The notes below the pieces were generated by a model. That model was not told the DNA's origin. It did no database searches and worked only from the letters and a program-made list of their open reading frames with translations. A program made the translations under genes and the position numbers. 32,669 nucleotides of DNA from a virus (Duplodnaviria > Caudoviricetes): positions 1 to 32,669 of the IMG/VR virus record IMGVR_UViG_3300049859_000126. One strand, written 5' to 3'. The stretch's first letter is position 1. Every line of letters starts with the position of its first letter. Shown piece after piece: positions 3,393 to 32,669 of the stretch.

Positions 3393-3410
3393 GGAGGGCT
3401 TCGGCCCTCC
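3393..3410. terminator. Intergenic hairpin GGAGGGC-TTCG-GCCCTCC
   Basis: Perfect 7-bp stem with a tetraloop; only a weak U-tract on the coding (-) strand. Confidence 0.5.
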
Positions 3411-3444
3411 AAAGTTGATTAGATGTTCAAAGTTGATTAGATGT
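3410..3444. repeat. 18-bp tandem duplication (CAAAGTTGATTAGATGT) covering the stop codon of 3437-4414
   Basis: Seen in sequence. Confidence 0.85.
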
Positions 3445-4414
3445 CCAGTTCAATCCGGTAGGCCAGCGTTCTCAAAGCCTCTTCAAAACCGAACCACGCC
3501 AGCAGGTTTTGATTTTCGTCTTCTTCACAGAAAGGGTCTTCAGCATCAAAATTATCACCAAACAAACCCTTCATGCTGTCTATCCCGCAGTCACTCATTA
3601 ACTCAGTAACAAGTTTTTGAATGTCTTTCTTGTGCTTCCTGTAGAAGGCTACACAGTCCGCTGTATATATTAACTCCCCAACTGTTCCGTTTACACAGCC
3701 ACCCGAAAGCACGTCTTTTACAAAGTCTTCGCTTTCTCTCTTACCTGCTATCCTTGCAACGGCCCTTTCAAGTTCCGTTTCGGCAGCGTTAAAGAGTTTG
3801 TCACTGATGCTTTCCCCCTCTGTATAACCCTCAATCAGAGTTAACAAGTCATCAAGCTGCTTTGTATAACCCTCAATCAGAGTTAACAAGTCATCAAGCT
3901 GCTTTGTAATCTCAAGCTGCTCTGTATAACCCTCAATCAGAGTTAACAAGTCATCAAGCTGCTTTGTAATCTCAATATCCCTTATGCGCCTTGATACGTT
4001 GCTGTTATTTACCCAAGCAACAGACCAGTCTGCGCATCGCAAGCAACATTCACCGACGCATTCATACTTACGGTTATTTCTAAGCATCCATGATTCCGCA
4101 GATGCAAAGTCATAGGCTGCCCTTGTCACATGTAGGGCCGTTTGAACGTTAGGAACTGGCGCGTTTTGGCTCCATTCTACTTTAAACGCCGCTTGTGCAG
4201 CTTTTGCTGTCCTGTCTCCTCCTGATACCCACTTGTCCGCCCATTCCAGCCATGCAAGCGGAACTGCTTTCTTGCGGCCTCTCGCAATGGCCCTTGTGAT
4301 GGTCTTCACTGCCCACTCTTTCCTGATTGCATCAGGAATTTCAGCAGAACGCAGCATCTCATGTAGTTCTTGTTCTTTGTTATTGGTCAGCATTAAAACG
4401 ATTGCAGCTTTCAT
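3437..4414 (-). CDS. Two-domain early protein: N-terminal WxxWAxxW-SG-DR domain, triplicated linker, acidic C-terminal DUF7222-like domain (possible Ocr-like DNA mimic)
   Basis: C-terminal motif GGCVNGTVGELIY...FY...H...LAWFGFEE, rich in D/E; family recalled from motif, not searched. Confidence 0.6.
   Translation of the reverse strand: MKAAIVLMLTNNKEQELHEMLRSAEIPDAIRKEWAVKTITRAIARGRKKAVPLAWLEWADKWVSGGDRTAKAAQAAFKVEWSQNAPVPNVQTALHVTRAAYDFASAESWMLRNNRKYECVGECCLRCADWSVAWVNNSNVSRRIRDIEITKQLDDLLTLIEGYTEQLEITKQLDDLLTLIEGYTKQLDDLLTLIEGYTEGESISDKLFNAAETELERAVARIAGKRESEDFVKDVLSGGCVNGTVGELIYTADCVAFYRKHKKDIQKLVTELMSDCGIDSMKGLFGDNFDAEDPFCEEDENQNLLAWFGFEEALRTLAYRIELDI
3821..3975. repeat. In-frame triplication (copies at 3821, 3863, 3923) encoding KQLDDLLTLIEGYT
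   Basis: Identical nucleotide copies at 42- and 60-bp offsets. Confidence 0.95.
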
Positions 4415-4432: not shown

Positions 4433-4759
4433 TTAGTAGTGCATCCGCACTGTTTCAGTTAATCCGAACCACACCCTTTTAATTGACTCCAGAACATCCG
4501 TCCCTGCAAGTCTGTATCTAAGATATTCGCTTTCTTTCGTCCACAGACTTTTATACATAGTAAGTCTGCTTTTAAAGTTCAAGCCTTTATACCTCTTTAA
4601 CATCCTTTCATATACTTGTTTTATAGTCTTCTCAAGTGCAGCCTCAACTGTAGCCAGACACTCTTTCCAGCTTATGTCTAACAGCTTACAGTTTCGCTGT
4701 TTAGCCAGCCGCCTGCGGATGTTCCAAGCTGCTTTGTTTCTTTCGCTTGTGATTAGCAT
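4433..4759 (-). CDS. Basic hypothetical protein, first gene of the leftward operon (108 aa)
   Basis: Directly downstream of a consensus promoter; GAGGAAAGGA precedes the ATG. Confidence 0.8.
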   Translation of the reverse strand: MLITSERNKAAWNIRRRLAKQRNCKLLDISWKECLATVEAALEKTIKQVYERMLKRYKGLNFKSRLTMYKSLWTKESEYLRYRLAGTDVLESIKRVWFGLTETVRMHY

Positions 4760-4771
4760 TTCCTTTCCTCT

Positions 4772-4800
4772 ATTATAACCGATCTTACTTTGGGAGTCAA
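4772..4800 (-). promoter_or_regulatory. Sigma-70 early promoter TTGACT-N17-TATAAT; palindrome AAGAACT-N5-AGTTCTT (4799-4817) overlaps the -35 edge
   Basis: 11/12 consensus match with 17-bp spacing. Confidence 0.8.
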
Positions 4801-4857
4801 GAACTCTTTAAGTTCTTTTCTTTTTTCCTCCTTCTCATTCACTTCATACCCTTATAA

Positions 4858-4874
4858 TGCAAAGACTATGCCAG
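4858..4874 (-). promoter_or_regulatory. Sigma-54-type -24/-12 promoter CTGGCATAGTCTTTGCA
   Basis: GG-N10-GC spacing, matches YTGGCAY-N4-TTTGCW; intergenic and pointing into the early operon. Confidence 0.65.
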
Positions 4875-4909
4875 TTTACAGTTTATGAGTTAAGTCATTG
4901 TAAATACTG

Positions 4910-4932
4910 AGTTTATTAGTTTATTAGTTTAT
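4910..4932. repeat. 8-bp tandem repeat (AGTTTATT) x2.9
   Basis: Seen in sequence. Confidence 0.8.
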
Positions 4933-5024
4933 AAGTCTTATTATACCCTATACAAGGTGAGTAATACTTATACAGTACAGAACTCATAAAGTGCAAAAGT
5001 TGTTAAGTTTATGAGGATATTCAG

Positions 5025-5063
5025 ACTGTGTAATCCTTATACAGTGTGTAACTTTTACACAGT
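5025..5063. promoter_or_regulatory. Two abutting palindromes, TGTGTAA-N3-TTA(C/T)ACA
   Basis: ACTGTGTAA-TCC-TTATACAGT (5025-5045) and AGTGTGTAA-CTT-TTACACAGT (5043-5063). Confidence 0.5.
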
Positions 5064-5091
5064 GCCACGTTGTAGGATCATAGGGGGCATA

Positions 5092-5359
5092 CTACTTTGT
5101 GGTGTCCTACTTTGTGGTGTCCTACTTTGTGGTGTCCTACTTTGTGGTGTCCTACTTTGTGGTGTCCTACTTTGTGGTGTCCTACTTTGTGGTGTCCTAC
5201 TTTGTGGTGTCCTACTTTGTGGTGTCCTACAGCATGGCATAGGGGCATACTACTTTGTGGTGTCCTACAGCATGGCATAGGGGCATACTACTTTGTGGTG
5301 TCCTACAGCATGGCATAGGGGCATACTACTTTGTGGTGTCCTACAGCATGGCATAGGGG
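5092..5359. repeat. Compound array: 15-bp unit (CTACTTTGTGGTGTC) x9 (5092-5226), then a 38-bp unit containing the 15-mer x3.5 (5227-5359)
   Basis: Read directly from the sequence; no variable spacers. Confidence 0.97.
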
Positions 5360-5381
5360 GTGGTGGGGTGAGGGGGTGGGG
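5356..5381 (+). other. G-quadruplex-forming motif G5-TGGT-G4-TGA-G5-T-G4
   Basis: Four runs of at least 4 G with short loops. Confidence 0.6.
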
Positions 5382-5437
5382 TACCTCCCTCTATCTATGA
5401 AACGGCCACCGCTATACACCTCATAAAAAATTAGGGT

Positions 5438-5522
5438 TTCCAAATTTTGGAATATAGAAACTACTTTCCAAGATTTGGAATACTAATTTATTACACTTTT
5501 ACAGACCTTCCAGGATGTGGAA
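5438..5522. promoter_or_regulatory. Three palindromic boxes TTCCA-N5-TGGAA (5438-5452, 5466-5480, 5508-5522)
   Basis: Identical half-sites with variable centres, just upstream of the terS promoter. Confidence 0.7.
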
Positions 5523-5531
5523 CACTTTTCT

Positions 5532-5560
5532 TTGACTTCTTTCGATATAGGAGGTATAGT
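5532..5560 (+). promoter_or_regulatory. Sigma-70 promoter TTGACT-N17-TATAGT for the late operon
   Basis: 10/12 consensus match with 17-bp spacer; the ATG at 5567 is 7 nt after the -10 box. Confidence 0.7.
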
Positions 5561-5566
5561 TCTTGT

Positions 5567-6031
5567 ATGGAACCATACACCCTACAAAATACGTCATACC
5601 TTGAGCAGCTCCTGAGGTTGCGGTACGAAATCTTAGGTGAGACCTTCGAGGCTATGGCGGCAAGTCACGGCCTGGTAGCCTCCGTGATCCGCCAACTTGC
5701 GACCCGTGAGGGGTGGAAGCAGCGTTTCCCTGCGATCAAGTCACCTTCTGAAAAAAATTCAGATGGGTATGAGGAGCTGGTACGTTCAAGACTTGCAATC
5801 TTTGATGCCGCTAAGGACTTAATGTTGGCAGGGCACATTGCTTATGCTGAGGGTCGCATATTTGAAAGGGTGACAGAAATTCTTGGAGACGATGAGTGTA
5901 ACAATCTCAGAGGGATGACTATGGCACTTGCCTTGATAAAGAGTATCCAAGGGTCTCTTGCAAAGAAAGAAGCCCAAGACGCAGGACTTCCGCTCTTTAT
6001 TCTGAAAGACATGTCAGGTACAAAAAAATGA
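5567..6031 (+). CDS. terS: Putative terminase small subunit (N-terminal HTH)
   Basis: RLRYE..G.T...MAASHGL....IRQLA.REGW pattern; first late gene, upstream of TerL; start moved from TTG 5447 to ATG 5567. Confidence 0.6.
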   Translation: MEPYTLQNTSYLEQLLRLRYEILGETFEAMAASHGLVASVIRQLATREGWKQRFPAIKSPSEKNSDGYEELVRSRLAIFDAAKDLMLAGHIAYAEGRIFERVTEILGDDECNNLRGMTMALALIKSIQGSLAKKEAQDAGLPLFILKDMSGTKK

Positions 6032-6153
6032 AATTTGCCTTCATACTAATCCTGGTATTGCTGATACACGGATGCGTTCAGAGTCCTCAACCAGCCCCAG
6101 CCCCAGCCCCCTTGCCGAGCTGCCCACCAGCTTGCATCGCAGGAGACCGGTAA
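6028..6153 (+). CDS. Small Pro-rich lipoprotein (41 aa) MKFAFILILVLLIHGCVQSPQPAPAPAPLPSCPPACIAGDR
   Basis: Not in the ORF track. ATGA overlap upstream, TAATG overlap downstream, signal peptide with an IHG-C lipobox. Confidence 0.75.
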   Translation: MKFAFILILVLLIHGCVQSPQPAPAPAPLPSCPPACIAGDR

Positions 6154-6572
6154 TGAAACTCCCCCTGGTTGTTGCCCTTGTGCTATCCTCGTGTAGTCCG
6201 GTGTGTGCGTTTACTGTAAGACCAGAAGATCGCAAATCTGAGTTGGTGGCGTTGGAAGTACACTTAGAGGTAACTCAGAATGTTCTAAAAGAGCTAAGAA
6301 CAACCTTGGACACCACTAATACTACTCTACAGGGCGTGGGTCTAACTTTAACGACGATACAGAACAACCTTGACAGGCACACAGAGAGAATAGAAAGACT
6401 CGAACAGACTGTCACGAAACAAGGTGGTGTTGTAGCTGCTCTTGAAGATGAAAAAAAAAAATTAAATAACCTACTAACTTTCTTATGCTACCTAGCTACT
6501 GCCGTGGCAGTTATACTGGGATTCTGTAAGAGGTCACATATAAAATCAGCCATAGTTGGGCCTAAGAAATGA
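6153..6572 (+). CDS. Membrane coiled-coil protein (N-terminal signal, possible LSS-C lipobox; C-terminal TM helix); spanin- or XhlA-like topology
   Basis: Start moved to ATG 6153; heptad region followed by a hydrophobic LLTFLCYLATAVAVILGFC segment. Confidence 0.65.
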   Translation: MKLPLVVALVLSSCSPVCAFTVRPEDRKSELVALEVHLEVTQNVLKELRTTLDTTNTTLQGVGLTLTTIQNNLDRHTERIERLEQTVTKQGGVVAALEDEKKKLNNLLTFLCYLATAVAVILGFCKRSHIKSAIVGPKK

Positions 6573-7795
6573 TGTACAAAGACTTTTCACCGTCCCTTCG
6601 TCAACAGATGCACTTTAACTCTGATCTGTCTCCAGCAGAGCGCAAGTTGAAGTACGAGAAGATGTCACGTTCTCCTTTCGCGTTCTACCGAGGGAGCAAC
6701 TTTGCATTCTGGGCAGAGTTCTTTGATCCCACTACACCCCAAGAGACCACCACCTGGATAGGAGGAGATCAGCATCCAGCGAACTTTGGCACCTATACTC
6801 TCCCAGATGGTCGGATCGTGTTTGGTCTGAATGACTGTGATGACGCAGTGAAGGCCGACTTCAGATATGACCTGCTGCGCATGTCCACGGGTATTCACTT
6901 GGTTGCTAAGGCCAATAGACTTTCAATGAGAGATGGGTACCGTGCTTCACTGGAGTTCGTCAGAGCTTATACTAAGCAGATTGAACTCTTGAAGCGTAAG
7001 CCCTTCAAAGCCAGTTCAGTGACTCTGGTGAACAGCGCACCCCAGCCTCTTTCCCTCTGGATGAAGTCTCTCAGAGCGCATTATCCTTGGTCTAAGAATG
7101 GGAGGTTCATCAGTGCTCCTAAGAAGTTCTCACCTGTAAACTACAATGAGTTTGATATTATTGAGTCTGCTGTTGGCCCGAAGATTAACAGTCGCGTGGT
7201 GGACATCGTAAGAAGAGTTGGTATGGGAACTGGTAGTTTAGGCGTTGAGCGGTTCTTCCTTCTTGCTAATGACGGGGTAGTCTGGGACATTAAGGAGACA
7301 AACTCAGCAACGGCTCATGAGTTCCTTGAAGATAGAGACTCACAGTCTAACGCCGAACGTGCTGCAACAGCGATCAAAAACTTGATAGGACATAAGCTCG
7401 CCTTTGCGGTGACTGTAGAAGTCCCCAAAGTGTCGGGGACAAAGACCACCTACAAGACATTACACCTCCTAGTTAAACAGTATGACCAGATGAAGGCATC
7501 TTACCCCCTCACTCCAGAGGAGTTGGAGAAGGGCGGATCACGCCTCTCCCTGGGTAAGACTAAGAACCTTCGGGCTATGTGTCGAGTGTGGGGCGATGAG
7601 CTGGCGAGAGCGCATGTACGGGCCATGCAGAAAGACCCTTCCATCAATCCTAATTTTTTGCAAGATGCTCTCATCCTTTGTGGCGACAAGATCAGGTTTG
7701 CTTCAGTGATTTCAAAACAAGGATACAGTTTCGCCAAGAAGACTTTCTCTGATTACCGCGAGTTTGTATCCGCACACCGGAGGGGGTTGTTGTGA
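6569..7795 (+). CDS. DUF2252 family protein (kinase/phosphotransferase-like)
   Basis: SPFAFYRGS, GDQHPANFG, FGLNDCDDA, GTGSLG..R, DIKE and G..LARAH motifs. Confidence 0.85.
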   Translation: MMYKDFSPSLRQQMHFNSDLSPAERKLKYEKMSRSPFAFYRGSNFAFWAEFFDPTTPQETTTWIGGDQHPANFGTYTLPDGRIVFGLNDCDDAVKADFRYDLLRMSTGIHLVAKANRLSMRDGYRASLEFVRAYTKQIELLKRKPFKASSVTLVNSAPQPLSLWMKSLRAHYPWSKNGRFISAPKKFSPVNYNEFDIIESAVGPKINSRVVDIVRRVGMGTGSLGVERFFLLANDGVVWDIKETNSATAHEFLEDRDSQSNAERAATAIKNLIGHKLAFAVTVEVPKVSGTKTTYKTLHLLVKQYDQMKASYPLTPEELEKGGSRLSLGKTKNLRAMCRVWGDELARAHVRAMQKDPSINPNFLQDALILCGDKIRFASVISKQGYSFAKKTFSDYREFVSAHRRGLL

Positions 7796-8406
7796 ACTAC
7801 CTGATCCTCCTACTTCTCTTAGCCCTTTCAGGCTGCACTAACAAAGCATACTATGAGCAGCAACCCGATTTAGCTCGGCAGACCACCGCGAACACAATAG
7901 CTGCTGGTGAAGCACTGAGCCAGATAGCTGCTCACATGTTCCCTACGGTTCCACCCAACCACAAGTTTATTGTCCCCTCTCCGCCTATGGACGTGGGGAA
8001 GGTTGATGTTGATAAGGAGGGGACTTTTGACATCCAGATTCAACCTCCCACTGTGGTCAACACCGGCGCGGCTGATGCACTGCAAGCAGTGCTGGTGGCG
8101 CAGGAGCGCACCCGGCAGGTGGCAGCCTTCACAGCCTTGGTGGAGAAGGTGCTGCTGCGCACCCAGCATCAGGTAGCTGATCCGTTCAGCGGCGAGAGGG
8201 TGCTGACCAAGGCCATTGAAGCCGCCGTGCCAATCGCAGCCATAGGAGCGATGGCAAGCACGATGAAAGAGGGTTTGCGATCAGCCACCGGGCCGGTGAC
8301 GGCAACTGTCTCAGGTGGCTCCTCTCTGGCTACCGAGACAGGCACAGCTAAAGGTGAAGCACCTACCACGACAACGACTTCAACCTCAACTGGGCTAAAA
8401 GAATGA
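7792..8406 (+). CDS. Lipoprotein of unknown function (204 aa)
   Basis: GTG start, GGAGGGG RBS, MNYLILLLLLALSG-C lipobox, Thr-rich tail. Confidence 0.8.
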   Translation: MNYLILLLLLALSGCTNKAYYEQQPDLARQTTANTIAAGEALSQIAAHMFPTVPPNHKFIVPSPPMDVGKVDVDKEGTFDIQIQPPTVVNTGAADALQAVLVAQERTRQVAAFTALVEKVLLRTQHQVADPFSGERVLTKAIEAAVPIAAIGAMASTMKEGLRSATGPVTATVSGGSSLATETGTAKGEAPTTTTTSTSTGLKE

Positions 8407-8476
8407 TTGATGTAAACGTAGCAACAACTTCAACCTCAACTGGGCTAAAAGAATGATTGATGTAAACGTAGCAACA
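8377..8476. repeat. Exact 50-bp tandem duplication spanning an ATGA gene junction; creates a 17-aa mini-ORF (8403-8456)
   Basis: 8377-8426 is identical to 8427-8476. Confidence 0.95.
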
Positions 8477-8695
8477 TCGTGCAGCGACGAAGACATTAAG
8501 GACATTATGGCATTTCATCCTTGGGACGAAAAGATGATCTCAAAGGGTACAAGAGTGAGAACCGCCATTGGTGAAGCTCTGAAGGTCATTATTGAAGAAG
8601 TCCCTCCGTCGTCGGACAGGGATTCGGCTATTCGGAAACTGCGTGAAGCCCGGATGGACTGTAATTCGGCGATCACCTTCAATGGCGAGCTGTGA
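8453..8695 (+). CDS. Acb2/Tad1-like helical hairpin protein (candidate immune-signal sponge)
   Basis: FH.W....VR......I...P.S.DR..AIRKL.EA.M..N.AI pattern resembling the Tad1 C-terminal SRE...A...EEA.MW.N helix. Confidence 0.6.
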   Translation: MIDVNVATSCSDEDIKDIMAFHPWDEKMISKGTRVRTAIGEALKVIIEEVPPSSDRDSAIRKLREARMDCNSAITFNGEL

Positions 8696-10158
8696 GATTC
8701 GAGCTTCAAACAGCCCCTCAAGGCCCTACACTCGAAGCGTTTAGGGCCTGTGAGGAGCAGCGCAAGTTTATTATGGGGCCTGTTGGGTCTGGTAAGACTA
8801 ACGAGTGCATCCAGAATGTAATGTTTAAAATCATCACTCAAGCCCCTTATAAGGGTGTGCGAAGATCAAGGTGCATGGCTGTGCGCAACACCTATAGTGA
8901 CCTGAAAACAACAACAATAAAAGATTGGTTGGCGATATTTGGAGACTTAGGAGAATTTAAGAAGGGCGGTTCAGAACCCCCTTATCAGACTTTAAGATTT
9001 AAGTTGGAAGATGGGACAAAGGTTGAATCAGAGATAATTTTCATCGCTCTTGATAGACCAGAGTCAATTAAAAAGTTAAAAGGGACAAACATCACATTCT
9101 TCTGGCTAAATGAGGCTTGTGAGCTTGCTAAAGAAGTCATTGATGATGCGGACTTACGGGCTGGCCGGTATCCGCACCCTTGGGAAGGTGGAGCTTCTTG
9201 GAGAGGACTGATTGGTGACACAAATCCCCCAGACACCGAGTCGTGGTACTACGACTATGCTGAAGTCAGTAAACCCAAAGGATGGGCATTCTTCCGTCAA
9301 CCCGGTGGCCTCATGCGCGAAATGCGGCTTCTTGATGACGGGAGGCAGGAGTGGACTGGCAAGTGGATACCAGACCCCGGAGCCGAGAATCTGCAAAACT
9401 TGCCGGAAGGATACTATGACCGAGGGCAAGCCGGAAAGTCTAACTTCTACATCGCTAACAGATTAGCGAATGAGTACGGAAAAGTGTTCTCAGGACGACC
9501 TGTTTATCTGGAACAGTGGAACTCACTGCTTCATGTGGATGATAAAGTAGAATTCATCGAAGACAGACCTCTTGTCATCGGTTTGGACTTTGGTTTGACC
9601 CCCTCAGCTATCATAGGCCAAGAGACTGTTCGGGGCCGGATTATAATTCTGGATGAACTGGTGTCTGAAGGCAAGGGTATTAACCAGTTTGTAACCGAAG
9701 ATTTGATGCCCTTATTGAATCAAGGATACCGAGGTGCTTCTGAAATGGTATTCATTGGCGACCCTGCGGGAGACCAGAGGGAGCAGACCGACGAGAATAC
9801 AGTTTTCAAGGAGTTGGCCTCTTTAGGCATAGAGGCTCTTGCTGCTAACACCAATGACACTATGATCCGTTGGGAAGCTGTGAGATGGTATTTGCAGCAA
9901 CTCCGGGATGGTAAGCCAGCGTTTGCAGTACACCCAAGGTGCCAAGTCCTGATTAAAGGTTTTGAAGGAGGGTACCAGTTTAAGACTATTACTGCATCAG
10001 GCTCTTCATTTCATTATAATGAGCAGGCCGAGAAGAATAAGTATTCGCACCCCCATGACGCAGGACAGTATCTTGCAATGTACTTTAGGGGTCTCTTCCT
10101 AGCTCCCAAGTCAACGTTCACTCGGAAAAAGTCAACTCGGCGATCAGCATGGGCTTAA
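8692..10158 (+). CDS. terL: Terminase large subunit
   Basis: Walker A GPVGSGKT, Walker B FFWLNE, coupling motif DTNP, nuclease motifs GLDFG and HPHDA. Confidence 0.95.
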   Translation: MRFELQTAPQGPTLEAFRACEEQRKFIMGPVGSGKTNECIQNVMFKIITQAPYKGVRRSRCMAVRNTYSDLKTTTIKDWLAIFGDLGEFKKGGSEPPYQTLRFKLEDGTKVESEIIFIALDRPESIKKLKGTNITFFWLNEACELAKEVIDDADLRAGRYPHPWEGGASWRGLIGDTNPPDTESWYYDYAEVSKPKGWAFFRQPGGLMREMRLLDDGRQEWTGKWIPDPGAENLQNLPEGYYDRGQAGKSNFYIANRLANEYGKVFSGRPVYLEQWNSLLHVDDKVEFIEDRPLVIGLDFGLTPSAIIGQETVRGRIIILDELVSEGKGINQFVTEDLMPLLNQGYRGASEMVFIGDPAGDQREQTDENTVFKELASLGIEALAANTNDTMIRWEAVRWYLQQLRDGKPAFAVHPRCQVLIKGFEGGYQFKTITASGSSFHYNEQAEKNKYSHPHDAGQYLAMYFRGLFLAPKSTFTRKKSTRRSAWA

Positions 10159-14599: not shown

Positions 14600-14869
14600 A
14601 TGAAGCTGAAGTATATCGGAAATAGACCTGAGTCCATGAGTTGCGTCTCTAATCCTTGTCTTGAGAAAGGCCCCTACAACTTCGCGAAGCGGGTCTGCGA
14701 GGTGGATGCCAAGGATGCTGCTTTCCTTCTGGAGCAAAATCCACGGTCTTTTGAGGTCGTTAACGAGGCTGTACCCCCAGAGAAGACAGTACCACCAGAG
14801 AAGACGGTACCACCAGAAAAGACTGTACCCCCAGGGAATACCACATCATCAGGGGTGAACAATCCATGA
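14600..14869 (+). CDS. Small hypothetical protein with VPPEKT repeats
   Basis: AGGAG RBS; 18-bp repeats at 14771-14834 that vary at wobble positions. Confidence 0.8.
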   Translation: MKLKYIGNRPESMSCVSNPCLEKGPYNFAKRVCEVDAKDAAFLLEQNPRSFEVVNEAVPPEKTVPPEKTVPPEKTVPPGNTTSSGVNNP

Positions 14870-15153
14870 GTGACATGAATTATGATTGTGCTGTCGAAGA
14901 GATGAAGAAGGGCGGAATTTGTGCCAGAAGAGGGTGGAACGGGAAAGATATGTGGGTAGGGCATACCCCCGGAGTGAAATCTCTCCCTGCTTCGTCTTTT
15001 TGGCACCCCTCTGCAAGAGCCTTCGCGGAAACAAACAGAGGATGTGCGGATGTCCTCCCATACTTCATAAAGAAGACTGCGGATGGGAAAATTTTGTTGG
15101 GGTGGATTGCATCTCAGACAGATAGGGTTGCTGAGGATTGGTATATCGTTTAA
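14866..15153 (+). CDS. tad2: DUF2829 / Tad2-family protein (candidate immune-signal sponge)
   Basis: MK.G...AR.GWNGK.MW, IKKTADGK and W.ASQTD..AEDW signature motifs. Confidence 0.85.
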   Translation: MSDMNYDCAVEEMKKGGICARRGWNGKDMWVGHTPGVKSLPASSFWHPSARAFAETNRGCADVLPYFIKKTADGKILLGWIASQTDRVAEDWYIV

Positions 15154-24568: not shown

Positions 24569-25675
24569 ATGCCTTTTACGCCAATACAAGTTTATTACCT
24601 CAATAGGTTAAACATTATAAGGGAGAACCCTGGGGGTTATGCGTCCTCCCTGGGTATAGACTTGAATGAAGGTCTCGCTCCCGGCACTATTTCTATAGAC
24701 CCTAAACCTCCTCTGAGACTGGAAACTCTTCTTACATCAATGGCTGATGCCCATTCACAGGAGATGCTTGATCTTGACTTCTATGATCATGTTTCACCCA
24801 CCACTGGAGGAACTTTAGACAGGTTTGATAACTCTGCTTATAGCTATATTGCTTTTGGCGAGAATCTTGGTATTGTTCCCTCCACAGGTGTCTTAGATCA
24901 GTATTATGCAGCAAACCTTATGATTGAAGCTCTCTTCATTGATGAGGGGGTAGTTGGTCGAGGGCACAGAACGACCATGCTTAACCCTTCTTATCGGGAC
25001 TTTGGAGTGGGTCATAAGATCGGAGAATGGAGCGGATTCACTAACACCCATATCCTGTCAATGGAGTTTGGCCTTAGCTCTGATTCAACAACAGATGTCA
25101 TTGGTTTCGTCTTAGAGGATCAAAACTCCAATGGGTTCTTTGATACCGGCGAGGGCATAAGTGGCATTGAAGTGGAGGCGTTTAATTCAGAAAACCTTTC
25201 AATGGGGTCAGTTTTTAGTGATACCAATGGTTACTATGACTTCCCCTTGATTGCTGGTACCTACACGCTTAAAGCATACACCCCAGATCACAGCGTAGAG
25301 CAAGTCGTCGTCTTAACCACAGAAAATCAGTATATGCCTTTATTCTGGGATTCTGTAGAAACTGAAGCCCCCTTAGTTTCATTCTCTGCTAATAAAACGG
25401 ACTTTATAGCGGATTTGCCATACACTAGTTTGCTCAATCCGGTGAACGTCAACAGCAGTGTAAGCACAAATCCACTGGTGCTTACATGGGCTGTTGAAAA
25501 GGCCAATAGGGTAACAATTGGAAAATTAGGTGTTGACTTCTTAGGGACATTGACCTTAGAAGAACTCTCGGCCCTTTCATTTGTTCTTGAAGCCTATGGC
25601 CCCGCTGGGTACACTAAATCAACCATAAACCTGACTCCCAGGTTGTTCCAGAAGTTTAATTCGGTATTCTCATGA
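24569..25675 (+). CDS. CAP (SCP/PR-1) domain protein with an SdrD B-like domain
   Basis: A.AHS.EM...F.DH, GENLG and GHR..MLNP.Y..FGVG motifs; then IGFVLEDQNSNGFFDTGEGISGI.V...TNGYY.F...GTYTL. Confidence 0.85.
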   Translation: MPFTPIQVYYLNRLNIIRENPGGYASSLGIDLNEGLAPGTISIDPKPPLRLETLLTSMADAHSQEMLDLDFYDHVSPTTGGTLDRFDNSAYSYIAFGENLGIVPSTGVLDQYYAANLMIEALFIDEGVVGRGHRTTMLNPSYRDFGVGHKIGEWSGFTNTHILSMEFGLSSDSTTDVIGFVLEDQNSNGFFDTGEGISGIEVEAFNSENLSMGSVFSDTNGYYDFPLIAGTYTLKAYTPDHSVEQVVVLTTENQYMPLFWDSVETEAPLVSFSANKTDFIADLPYTSLLNPVNVNSSVSTNPLVLTWAVEKANRVTIGKLGVDFLGTLTLEELSALSFVLEAYGPAGYTKSTINLTPRLFQKFNSVFS

Positions 25676-30913: not shown

Positions 30914-32669
30914 TCAGATCATTGACGAGCTTGAAAGGCGTAAGGCTGCTGAAGCCCCGCAGGTTCCTCAACCAGAGGAGTATTCATTGCCGGGGCGAGT
31001 AGGCAGCCGCTTCATAGCTGGTTCCGTTCAAGCTCTGGGTAACACGGGAGGGGGCCTAAGTGCTGTAGGTGCGTCTCTGTCCAACCCTACACGCCTTCAG
31101 AGCGAAAAAGAGTATCTGGAGCAAAATCCGGGGGAACGGCCCGCTTTTGAGAAGGCCCACACAGAAAGATACGGGTCAACCGGGGGTGTTTGGGATGTTT
31201 CAGGCAACCCTGATATACCTATGCCTGCGCCTCTGAAGTCAGATAGAAATAGTGTTGTGTTGGGTGGTTACTCTCCTTTTGTGTCCCCAGAGAAGCGTAT
31301 TGTCAAGAAAACACCAGACGAGTACACTCTCTTCGATCGTGCGGGGGTTCAAGCGGCCCCTGTACTTAAAACAACTGGTGATTTCTATACCCAAAAAGCA
31401 GATAAGATACTGAAGAATAATTCTCAATGGGAGATGCCTGAACACCTAAAGGGGCGAGGGGCACTTGAAACCCTGTATGCTTCAGATGTAACTTTCAAAG
31501 ACAAGATGACGGTGTTCCTTGGTGCCCTGGCTGAGAACACCCCACAGATGGCAGCATCACTTGCAGCTCCCATTGTCGGGGCGAGCGTAGGCTCGCTGGC
31601 TGGGCCAGGAGGAACTACTGCTGGACTGTACGCCGGATTAAGCGTCGGGATGGGCAGTAATTTCCTGATGGAGACTGGTGGAGTTTATAATGACCTGAGA
31701 GCCAAGCATCCAGAAATAGCTGAAGATCAGTTGGCGGACACCGCCATTGCACACGGGGTAGTTGCATCAGCTCTTGAGATGCTGCCTGTCGTTTCACTCT
31801 TCAACCGAGTCCCTGGACTAAAGAAAGCCCTTGTCAGCGGCACAGTCCAAGAACTTATGCAACGCCCCCAACTGGCTAAGAGGATCGTGGCAGGCTTGGT
31901 TGGTGAAGGGCTATCTGAAGGAGCTACAGAAGCCCTGCAAGAACTCTCTGCCAACGTAGCAAAGAAAGTTTATGACGAGAACCAATCGTTAACTCAGGGG
32001 ATGGCCGAATCAGCCTTCCTGGGTTTCGTCATGGGCGGCGTAGGGAGTGGAGCTACAGCTATAGCGACCCAACCTTCCGCAGTTAAACAGTATCAGTTGA
32101 GCAAGCTCAACGAGATGTCCTCTGCTGAGTTGAAAGCACTGGCGGATAACCCTGAAGCACTGACAAAGGAGGGCTATGACAGGTCTGAAGTTGTACAGTC
32201 CATGCGTTTGATCAGAAACTTGGAAAGCGCAGGCGAACGACAGCCCCGACCCGTTGGAATTGAACCAACTAACATTGAGCCTGTGGAGGTCAAGTCAGAA
32301 AAGAAACTTAGAGCAGCCAACCTTCCTATTGAACAGTTGGAGCTTTTAAAGGCAGAACCCGAAAAACTTAAGGCATATAACACCACACCCCTGGTTATTG
32401 ACAGTCTTATAAAAGAGAAGCAGGGTGAACGTGACTTCATAGACAGGTACGAAAATCTCCTCAATTCTGCGCCAACTGAAGCAGTTAGAAAGGGCATAGA
32501 GTCATCACTCCAAGGGGAGTATTATAAAAAGTTGAAGGGTGCAGCCGTGCAGCCTGAAGCCGTGCAGCCTGAAGCCGTGCAGCCTGAAGCCGTGCAGCCT
32601 GAAGCCGTGCAGCCTGAAGCCGTGCAGCCTGAAGCCGTGCAGCCTGAAGCCGTGCAGCCTGAAGCCGTG
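30900..32669 (+). CDS. Large internal virion protein, partial (runs off the right edge); MGLLDQIIDELERRK...
   Basis: ATG at 30900 overlaps the previous gene; Gly/Ala hydrophobic helices and an EGLSEGATEALQE motif; apparently no stop in the window (start and end translated by hand, absent from the ORF track). Confidence 0.75.
   Translation, partial: MGLLDQIIDELERRKAAEAPQVPQPEEYSLPGRVGSRFIAGSVQALGNTGGGLSAVGASLSNPTRLQSEKEYLEQNPGERPAFEKAHTERYGSTGGVWDVSGNPDIPMPAPLKSDRNSVVLGGYSPFVSPEKRIVKKTPDEYTLFDRAGVQAAPVLKTTGDFYTQKADKILKNNSQWEMPEHLKGRGALETLYASDVTFKDKMTVFLGALAENTPQMAASLAAPIVGASVGSLAGPGGTTAGLYAGLSVGMGSNFLMETGGVYNDLRAKHPEIAEDQLADTAIAHGVVASALEMLPVVSLFNRVPGLKKALVSGTVQELMQRPQLAKRIVAGLVGEGLSEGATEALQELSANVAKKVYDENQSLTQGMAESAFLGFVMGGVGSGATAIATQPSAVKQYQLSKLNEMSSAELKALADNPEALTKEGYDRSEVVQSMRLIRNLESAGERQPRPVGIEPTNIEPVEVKSEKKLRAANLPIEQLELLKAEPEKLKAYNTTPLVIDSLIKEKQGERDFIDRYENLLNSAPTEAVRKGIESSLQGEYYKKLKGAAVQPEAVQPEAVQPEAVQPEAVQPEAVQPEAVQPEAVQPEAV
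32544..32669. repeat. Perfect 15-bp tandem repeat (GCCGTGCAGCCTGAA) at least x8.4, encoding AVQPE
   Basis: Read directly from the sequence; truncated by the window end. Confidence 0.97.

Follow-up and report, generated by a model that had tools for sequence, protein, structure and literature searches.

A strongly conserved, kinase-like DUF2252 gene in the variable terS–terL cargo slot of an uncultured phage lineage

The virus record IMGVR_UViG_3300049859_000126 (IMG/VR; referred to as the window herein) is a linear DNA of 32,669 nt that we analyzed over its full length and whose estimated completeness is 52%. Between a presumed terminase small-subunit gene (terS) and the terminase large-subunit gene (terL), it carries five plus-strand open reading frames (ORFs), exactly where the initial annotation had placed a five-gene cargo: three predicted envelope lipoprotein genes (the envelope trio), one gene of the DUF2252 family and one gene for a sponge-like protein. 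We found that the block is a known kind of variable slot. Variable cargo in the terminase interval and a sponge-like gene are ordinary; the unusual items are an intact phage-borne DUF2252 kinase and possibly a helical unimolecular spanin. The DUF2252 gene is strongly conserved, its product is likely active as judged from its sequence, and our searches found it in no other phage group.

The DUF2252 gene (6569..7795, plus strand) encodes a 408-residue protein that matches Pfam PF10009 with an E-value of 1.1e-46 (160.1 bits against a cut-off of 22.3). Both motifs to which the initial annotation had pointed are present, D67-x-H69-x-x-N72 as the catalytic loop and N88-D89-x-D91 as the metal loop. 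A homologue search gave 39 matches, comprising five clusters at 85-95% identity followed by bacterial proteins at 23-40% local identity. Ten residues (D67, H69, N72, N88, D89, D91, G220, S223, G225 and K242) are invariant in all 38 phage-lineage and bacterial sequences compared, and the same ten plus E263 are invariant in 22/22 phage-lineage sequences, the invariance of E263 being limited to the phage set. Kinase roles were assigned to these residues by motif and by the structural match of the N-lobe described below. When we compared the window with its relative L002 (terL 96% identical), the ratio of non-synonymous to synonymous substitution rates (dN/dS) of the DUF2252 gene was 0.078 at a dS of 0.22, with 53 synonymous and 16 non-synonymous differences in this single pair. 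The same comparison gave 0.057 for terL, 0.052 for the portal gene and 0.17-0.37 for the trio. By this sequence measure, the DUF2252 gene is under strong purifying selection. The invariant catalytic residues, the 22 phage-lineage sequences and the low dN/dS together rule out a dead or one-off gene, and the earlier description of a catalytically intact, kinase-like enzyme is borne out, since selection maintains it and it lies beside envelope genes in several relatives.

In a quick tree of 69 rows, four of which (L025, L029, L035 and L044) are wrong-frame picks to be ignored, the phage DUF2252 sequences form one clade with 100% support in the Shimodaira-Hasegawa-like approximate likelihood ratio test (SH-aLRT). 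The clade sits on a stem of 1.43 and has no strongly supported sister, and no close donor was found among the 65 other rows. INPHARED gave no other phage DUF2252 with either the window's query or a bacterial one, and neither did PHROGs or, at E 0.001, BFVD; in IMG/VR, peptide-pattern scans, whose reach was limited, turned up nothing apart from L001. Recurrence, which the initial annotation had left to phage databases and conserved neighborhoods, was therefore found in part: the neighborhood is kept in several relatives, and no other phage group yielded a DUF2252. Among bacteria, the family occurred in 29 of 251 sampled genomes of one phylum. Compared with bacterial members, the window's copy is phage-encoded within a late operon, more basic and part of a long-stem clade. 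The accessible portions of the DUF2252 literature contain no account of phage members or of a substrate, and the supplements may list viral members.

The predicted structure of the protein has a mean predicted local distance difference test score (pLDDT) of 88.7 and a predicted template modeling score of 0.90. Structural alignment places residues 187-308 on the N-lobes of MphH (Z 6.4, root-mean-square deviation 3.1, 87 residues aligned) and NahK (Z 6.3). Further N-lobe matches were to fructosamine kinases, APH(9) and homoserine kinase, choline kinases were listed too, and the top eight rows were all kinase-like chains. The catalytic loop, at 67-91, thus precedes the N-lobe in the chain. This swapped order fits the one reported for the family, which has been described as a lobe-swapped member of the PKinase clan (PMC9758233; bioRxiv 10.64898/2026.09.18.752743). 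MphH, NahK, fructosamine-3-kinase, APH(9) and homoserine kinase share with DUF2252 the N-lobe fold (Z 5.2-6.4) and loops in the style of D-x-H-x-x-N and N-D-x-D, but their lobe order is not swapped and identity to them is 7-14%. The C-lobe was matched weakly when the whole model was searched (Foldseek E above 1), and no solved structure matched DUF2252 by sequence. One sequence match, to an oligoribonuclease (E 0.0024), was treated as chance.

The DUF2252 protein has neither a signal peptide nor a membrane helix (best 19-residue mean hydropathy 1.09) and is accordingly predicted to be cytoplasmic, apart from the periplasm-facing parts of the trio. Its net charge is +18 in the window and +13 to +22 in 20 phage sequences, whereas the 33 bacterial sequences compared have a median of +2 (range -33 to +18). 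Polyphosphate genes lie within ~1.5 kb of at least 2 of 30 bacterial DUF2252 loci (29 genomes, one phylum), namely Ppx/GppA at L028 and PPK2 at L038; the count is a lower bound since frame-picking in the 63 neighbor segments scanned may miss neighbors. A polyphosphate kinase is also next door in one of eight plasmid DUF2252 loci. We regard the polyphosphate link as a lead and not as a rule. Together, the N-lobe of small-molecule-kinase type, the basic surface and this lead make an anionic small molecule our first choice of substrate. DUF2252 most likely acts alone as a late cytoplasmic phosphotransferase on such a substrate.

The gene content of the slot across relatives indicates which genes belong together. 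In all five loci with 54-56% terL identity (L003-L007, two near-identical groups), terS directly abuts terL; the slot is thus empty in the distant loci and its cargo is lineage-specific. L002 has genes for 39 residues, 139 residues, DUF2252 and 205 residues, followed directly by terL and with no sponge-like gene. In L008, DUF2252 is missing, but all three envelope genes are present, as is the sponge-like gene. L009 carries, between the lipoprotein and sponge-like genes, an additional 82-residue gene with Cys motifs (L009:491-739), which ends in a copy of the lipoprotein's last codons and so keeps the coupling. We also examined eight metagenome runs in contig detail, using a run query that contained DUF2252. 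The sponge-like gene is skipped in contigs of runs X2, X3 and X5, and in run X6 the sponge-skipping junction is present as loose ends. One contig of run X18 has terS through the lipoprotein gene in order and 385 other letters at the insertion hot spot described below. The envelope trio was present in 3/3 loci read through, and its genes are the sole ones of the block common to all three. In the window, in L002 and in contigs of X2 and X18, DUF2252 is flanked by trio genes 2 and 3, and its ends overlap theirs. The N-terminus of the L008 lipoprotein resembles several DUF2252 N-termini, which suggests that a deletion joining two similar gene starts removed the kinase gene there. The trio forms the core of the slot; DUF2252 is common, although at least one contig does without it, and the sponge-like gene comes and goes. 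A single five-gene system, as first proposed, is ruled out by the content of L002, L008, L009 and the examined runs: the five genes are not one module, given that L008 lacks DUF2252 and that L002 and several runs lack the sponge-like gene.

Trio gene 1 (6028..6153, plus strand) encodes a 41-residue, Pro-rich predicted lipoprotein with a lipobox; its relatives have 35-41 residues and its dN/dS is 0.37 and 0.23. In its Pro content it is like an outer-membrane spanin (o-spanin), but the gene is upstream of the 139-residue gene. The latter, trio gene 2 (6153..6572, plus strand), has Cys14 in 15/15 sequences, with a consensus lipobox in 12 of them by pattern only. Its product has a coiled-coil-like stretch of ~90 residues with weak coiled-coil profile matches. 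At its C-terminus is a membrane helix (hydropathy 2.36 at 107-125) followed by basic residues; the helix is found in 14/15 sequences, one sequence being truncated. Trio gene 3 (7792..8406, plus strand) encodes a 204-residue predicted lipoprotein, also with a lipobox, of an unnamed helical family with 16 close matches and 13 representatives. One distant relative is named from a Deltaproteobacteria bin. A Mu-like phage record also contains a distant relative, encoded upstream of genes for a TraR/DksA zinc finger protein, TerS, TerL and a Mu portal, at a position where Mu-like phages keep their lysis genes; this record (60% complete) gave no DUF2252 match. The 204-residue protein had no INPHARED match and its model was unreliable (pLDDT 50) and too poor for a fold search. 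Its Atlas matches reached at most 0.90, to unnamed viral clusters, and those of the 139-residue protein at most 0.82. Of the 25 genes of the late operon that we scanned, three have lipoboxes, and all of these lie inside the five-gene block.

These features, together with the topology of the 139-residue protein, agree with the envelope- or spanin-type neighbors first noticed, and an envelope role of the trio is well supported by sequence. That it serves lysis rather than exclusion is a guess. The 139-residue protein may be a helical unimolecular spanin (u-spanin): as in T1 gp11, a lipobox-like N-terminal Cys is combined with a C-terminal membrane helix. Proteins of this type break the outer membrane in concert with holin and endolysin. 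It differs from T1 gp11 in having no family match, no endolysin beside its gene and a non-standard lipobox in 3/15 sequences. It also differs from the two-component Rz/Rz1 type, in which the i-spanin has an N-terminal membrane helix as anchor and the o-spanin gene is embedded in, overlaps or follows the i-spanin gene: its anchor is C-terminal, the 41-residue lipoprotein gene lies upstream and no Rz/Rz1 family matched.

The last gene of the block (8453..8695, plus strand) encodes an 80-residue protein resembling the Acb2/Tad1 hairpin, in size as well as in profile. Its likeness to Acb2/Tad1, part of the initial annotation, is seen in matches to PF24729 (E 5.4e-4) and phrog_1454 (E 1.3e-9), although the PF24729 score of 20.6 bits is below the cut-off of 27. 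Three copies of the sponge-like protein scored 19.4-22.4 bits against the same cut-off (E 1e-4 to 1e-3), and no match to solved Acb2/Tad1 sequences was found. The gene, which is present in L008 and L009 and not in L002, has a dN/dS of 0.17-0.27. Acb2 is a hexamer with ligand residues Y11/K26 and R67/T74 in PaMx33 Acb2 (PMC10312549), and proteins of its family bind varied signals (bioRxiv 10.1101/2025.08.24.671296; PMC10312549). From its sequence, the 80-residue protein is a probable sponge, with nucleotide signals as candidate ligands, and not novel. A Tad2-like gene lies at 14866-15153 (plus strand), two genes after the major capsid gene, and matches PF11195 above the cut-off (E 1.2e-18). In L002, the Tad2-like stretch is replaced by ~360 other bases, making it a second variable anti-defense slot.

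No endolysin had been recognized in the initial annotation, and no lysis family matched among the 30 window ORFs that we scanned. This holds for a record that is only ~52% complete. In the distant phage G255, whose portal and capsid belong to the same families as those of the window, genes for an endolysin (phrog_315, E 1.8e-31) and an Rz-like spanin come after the tail and ejection genes, in a region that is missing from the window. The simplest explanation for the unseen endolysin is therefore the incomplete genome, and its absence says nothing yet. G255 differs in its cargo before terL, where a 300-residue protein of unknown function and a peptidase (phrog_16701) are encoded between the presumed terS and terL (L059:9380-11136). 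In Burkholderia phage CSP3, 15 variable genes lie between terS and terL and the lysis cassette is separate (PMC10269572). The window resembles CSP3 and its kin in having cargo in the same interval that varies among relatives, with lysis genes elsewhere in those phages; its cargo differs in consisting of three lipoprotein-type genes, a kinase and a sponge-like gene.

We give about an even chance to the following explanation. The terS-terL interval would be a variable cargo slot that holds an envelope trio and two independent genes, DUF2252 being an active, standalone late phosphotransferase with a small anionic substrate. The late packaging transcript would cover all slot genes. Between the swapped lobes of DUF2252, ATP-Mg would be bound through the Gly loop 220-225, Lys242, Glu263, the metal-binding Asp89 and the catalytic Asp67, and the enzyme would move phosphate onto a nucleotide- or polyphosphate-type substrate, thereby adjusting host phosphate or nucleotide pools while virions are being made. 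Independently of the kinase, the trio would work in the envelope, most likely aiding lysis in the manner of a spanin by disrupting the outer membrane; the endolysin would be encoded in the half of the genome that the record does not cover. The 80-residue protein would be an ordinary sponge against nucleotide-signaling defense.

Several observations weigh against this explanation. The activity and substrate of DUF2252 are predictions from sequence, and late expression is read from operon position. The fold matches (Z 5-6.4, mainly to the N-lobe) are in a range that the tool calls common, and Foldseek gave no match in the PDB at E 0.001. As for charge, 6/33 bacterial DUF2252 proteins are likewise at +11 or more. 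No polyphosphate link was found at 28 of the 30 bacterial loci, and the plasmid case is near-identical to the PPK2 genome case. Loss of DUF2252 was seen in a single 3.2-kb contig (L008), and no DUF2252-skipping joint was found in the eight runs, whose query contained DUF2252, so the kinase and the trio usually travel together. For the trio, no spanin family in Pfam, PHROGs or NCBIfam matched, and cleavage after Ala19 by signal peptidase I is an alternative for the signal of the 139-residue protein. Lastly, known u-spanins are beta-rich (PMC6139136) while the body of the 139-residue protein is coiled-coil-like by sequence.

A possible, clearly less probable alternative is that DUF2252 is a counter-defense kinase acting on host defense proteins, like the T7 kinase (T7K), or on nucleotide immune signals, with the slot as an anti-defense hot spot that it shares with the sponge-like gene. 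The gene lies two genes from the Acb2/Tad1-like gene, in a genome that also has the variable Tad2-like gene, its product is strongly basic as expected of a nucleic-acid or nucleotide binder, and the long stem of the phage clade is compatible with a changed function. T7K itself provides a precedent in disarming defenses by phosphorylation (PMC13645617). T7 protein kinase (gp0.7) and JSS1_004 resemble DUF2252 as phage-encoded, kinase-like enzymes that could act on the host. However, DUF2252 has no shut-off domain, matches no PHROGs family at E 0.01, the T7K family (phrog 2828) included, and belongs to the late operon, whereas T7K is an early gene. Its nearest folds are small-molecule kinases. 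Its low dN/dS and near-fixation in the lineage are unlike the phage's own come-and-go sponge genes, and kinase and sponge were lost independently. Its metal motif is N-D-C-D, without the DPV motif of the T7K family (PMC13645617). We consider it rather unlikely that both halves of a bolder proposal hold, namely that a lobe-swapped DUF2252 was recruited as a late host-takeover kinase of nucleotide immune signals, polyphosphate or defense proteins, and that the slot also encodes a coiled-coil unimolecular spanin.

More doubtful still is a reduced form of the module first proposed, in which the trio and DUF2252 jointly remodel the envelope to bring about superinfection exclusion or non-standard lysis, with the kinase phosphorylating a lipid or lipopolysaccharide precursor at the cytoplasmic face. 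The position of DUF2252 between trio genes 2 and 3 favors it, as would a basic surface that could bind anionic lipids. Kinase-like folds such as Kdo kinase and choline kinase act on lipopolysaccharide and lipids, and choline kinases are among our fold matches. Yet L008 has the trio without the kinase, the Mu-like record with the distant 204-residue relative gave no DUF2252 match, overlapping ends are the norm throughout this operon, and no envelope partner recurs at bacterial DUF2252 loci. Least likely, we think, is that the trio serves superinfection exclusion or receptor masking instead of lysis and that DUF2252, although conserved, binds nucleotides or is weakly active and plays no catalytic part in infection; the missing spanin family match fits this, and phage lipoproteins often block receptors, but every catalytic residue is invariant and the Mu-like relative lies where phages of that kind keep lysis genes. 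A full lysis cassette is probably elsewhere, as in G255 and CSP3 (PMC10269572), which would suit exclusion, while a lipobox with a C-terminal membrane helix is the defining u-spanin topology (PMC6139136) and argues for lysis.

The presumed terS (5567..6031, plus strand; 154 residues) was assigned by position and by its likeness, by eye, to the genes abutting terL in L003-L007; no family in Pfam, PHROGs or NCBIfam matched. Just upstream, a sigma-70-like promoter match (10/12; 5532..5560, plus strand) is a candidate start of the late transcript, to which the six promoter matches found against 4.4 expected by chance lend little weight. No plus-strand terminator match occurred within 4700-9000. 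At the other end, terL (8692..10158, plus strand) was identified by Terminase_6N and phrog_2. The claim that every gene is coupled by an overlapping stop and start held for five of the six junctions from the presumed terS to terL and failed between the 204-residue and 80-residue genes, which are 46 nt apart. This gap results from a 50-bp tandem duplication (8372..8476) that spans their junction and coincides with the insertion hot spot of the relatives; a 17-codon bridging ORF (8403-8456) is its product. The duplication is unlikely to be an assembly error given that Logan contigs of run X1, possibly the source sample, contain it (depth 158 for the 50-nt piece versus 79-94). Overlaps are equally usual outside the block, at 11/18 junctions from terL onward, which rules out translational coupling as proof of a module.

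Profile searches identified in the window terL, a P22-like portal, a Phage_capsid_3 major capsid protein and an SU10-type adaptor, which together mark a podovirus-like phage. The nearest cultured terL product is that of Burkholderia phage BcepC6B, at 48% identity. Near-identical DNA occurred in freshwater, sediment, wetland, soil and other metagenome runs (24 rows, 21 studies, shares mostly 0.2-0.5), and RNA runs contained small shares only. The window phage is a member of an uncultured freshwater-sediment lineage. A genome-contig scan gave a lipobox-level match only (L013), and hence neither a prophage nor a host was found. The right end of the window breaks off inside a large virion gene, and no contig was found that extends beyond it; the record ends within a 15-bp array at 32543-32669. 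Many other near-exact short tandem duplications were observed, several of them intragenic (288-403, 1384-1431, 2027-2061, 3410-3444, 3821-3975 and 14771-14838), and the lineage seems prone to slippage or duplication. Perfect tandem arrays at 5092-5359 (15 bp x 9.3; 38 bp x 3.9) lie upstream of terS, in the gap from which the early and late arms diverge. They differ or are shorter in relatives and may be a packaging, origin or regulatory site. At the head of the leftward gene arm is a strong sigma-70-like match of 11/12 (4772-4800, minus strand). Among the presumed tail genes, a 368-residue protein (24569-25675, plus strand) has weak CAP-family and SdrD B-like/carboxypeptidase-regulatory domains.

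A compact, well-folding and strongly selected phage DUF2252 offers a clean handle on the function of a widespread bacterial family, and the few kinases listed for phages would gain a new type of enzyme. If the 139-residue protein breaks the outer membrane, it would be a helical unimolecular spanin and could help to explain phages that seemingly lack spanins. Should DUF2252 have been recruited as a host-takeover kinase as well, the slot would hold a helical counterpart of the beta-rich T1 gp11 type together with a new kind of host-takeover enzyme.

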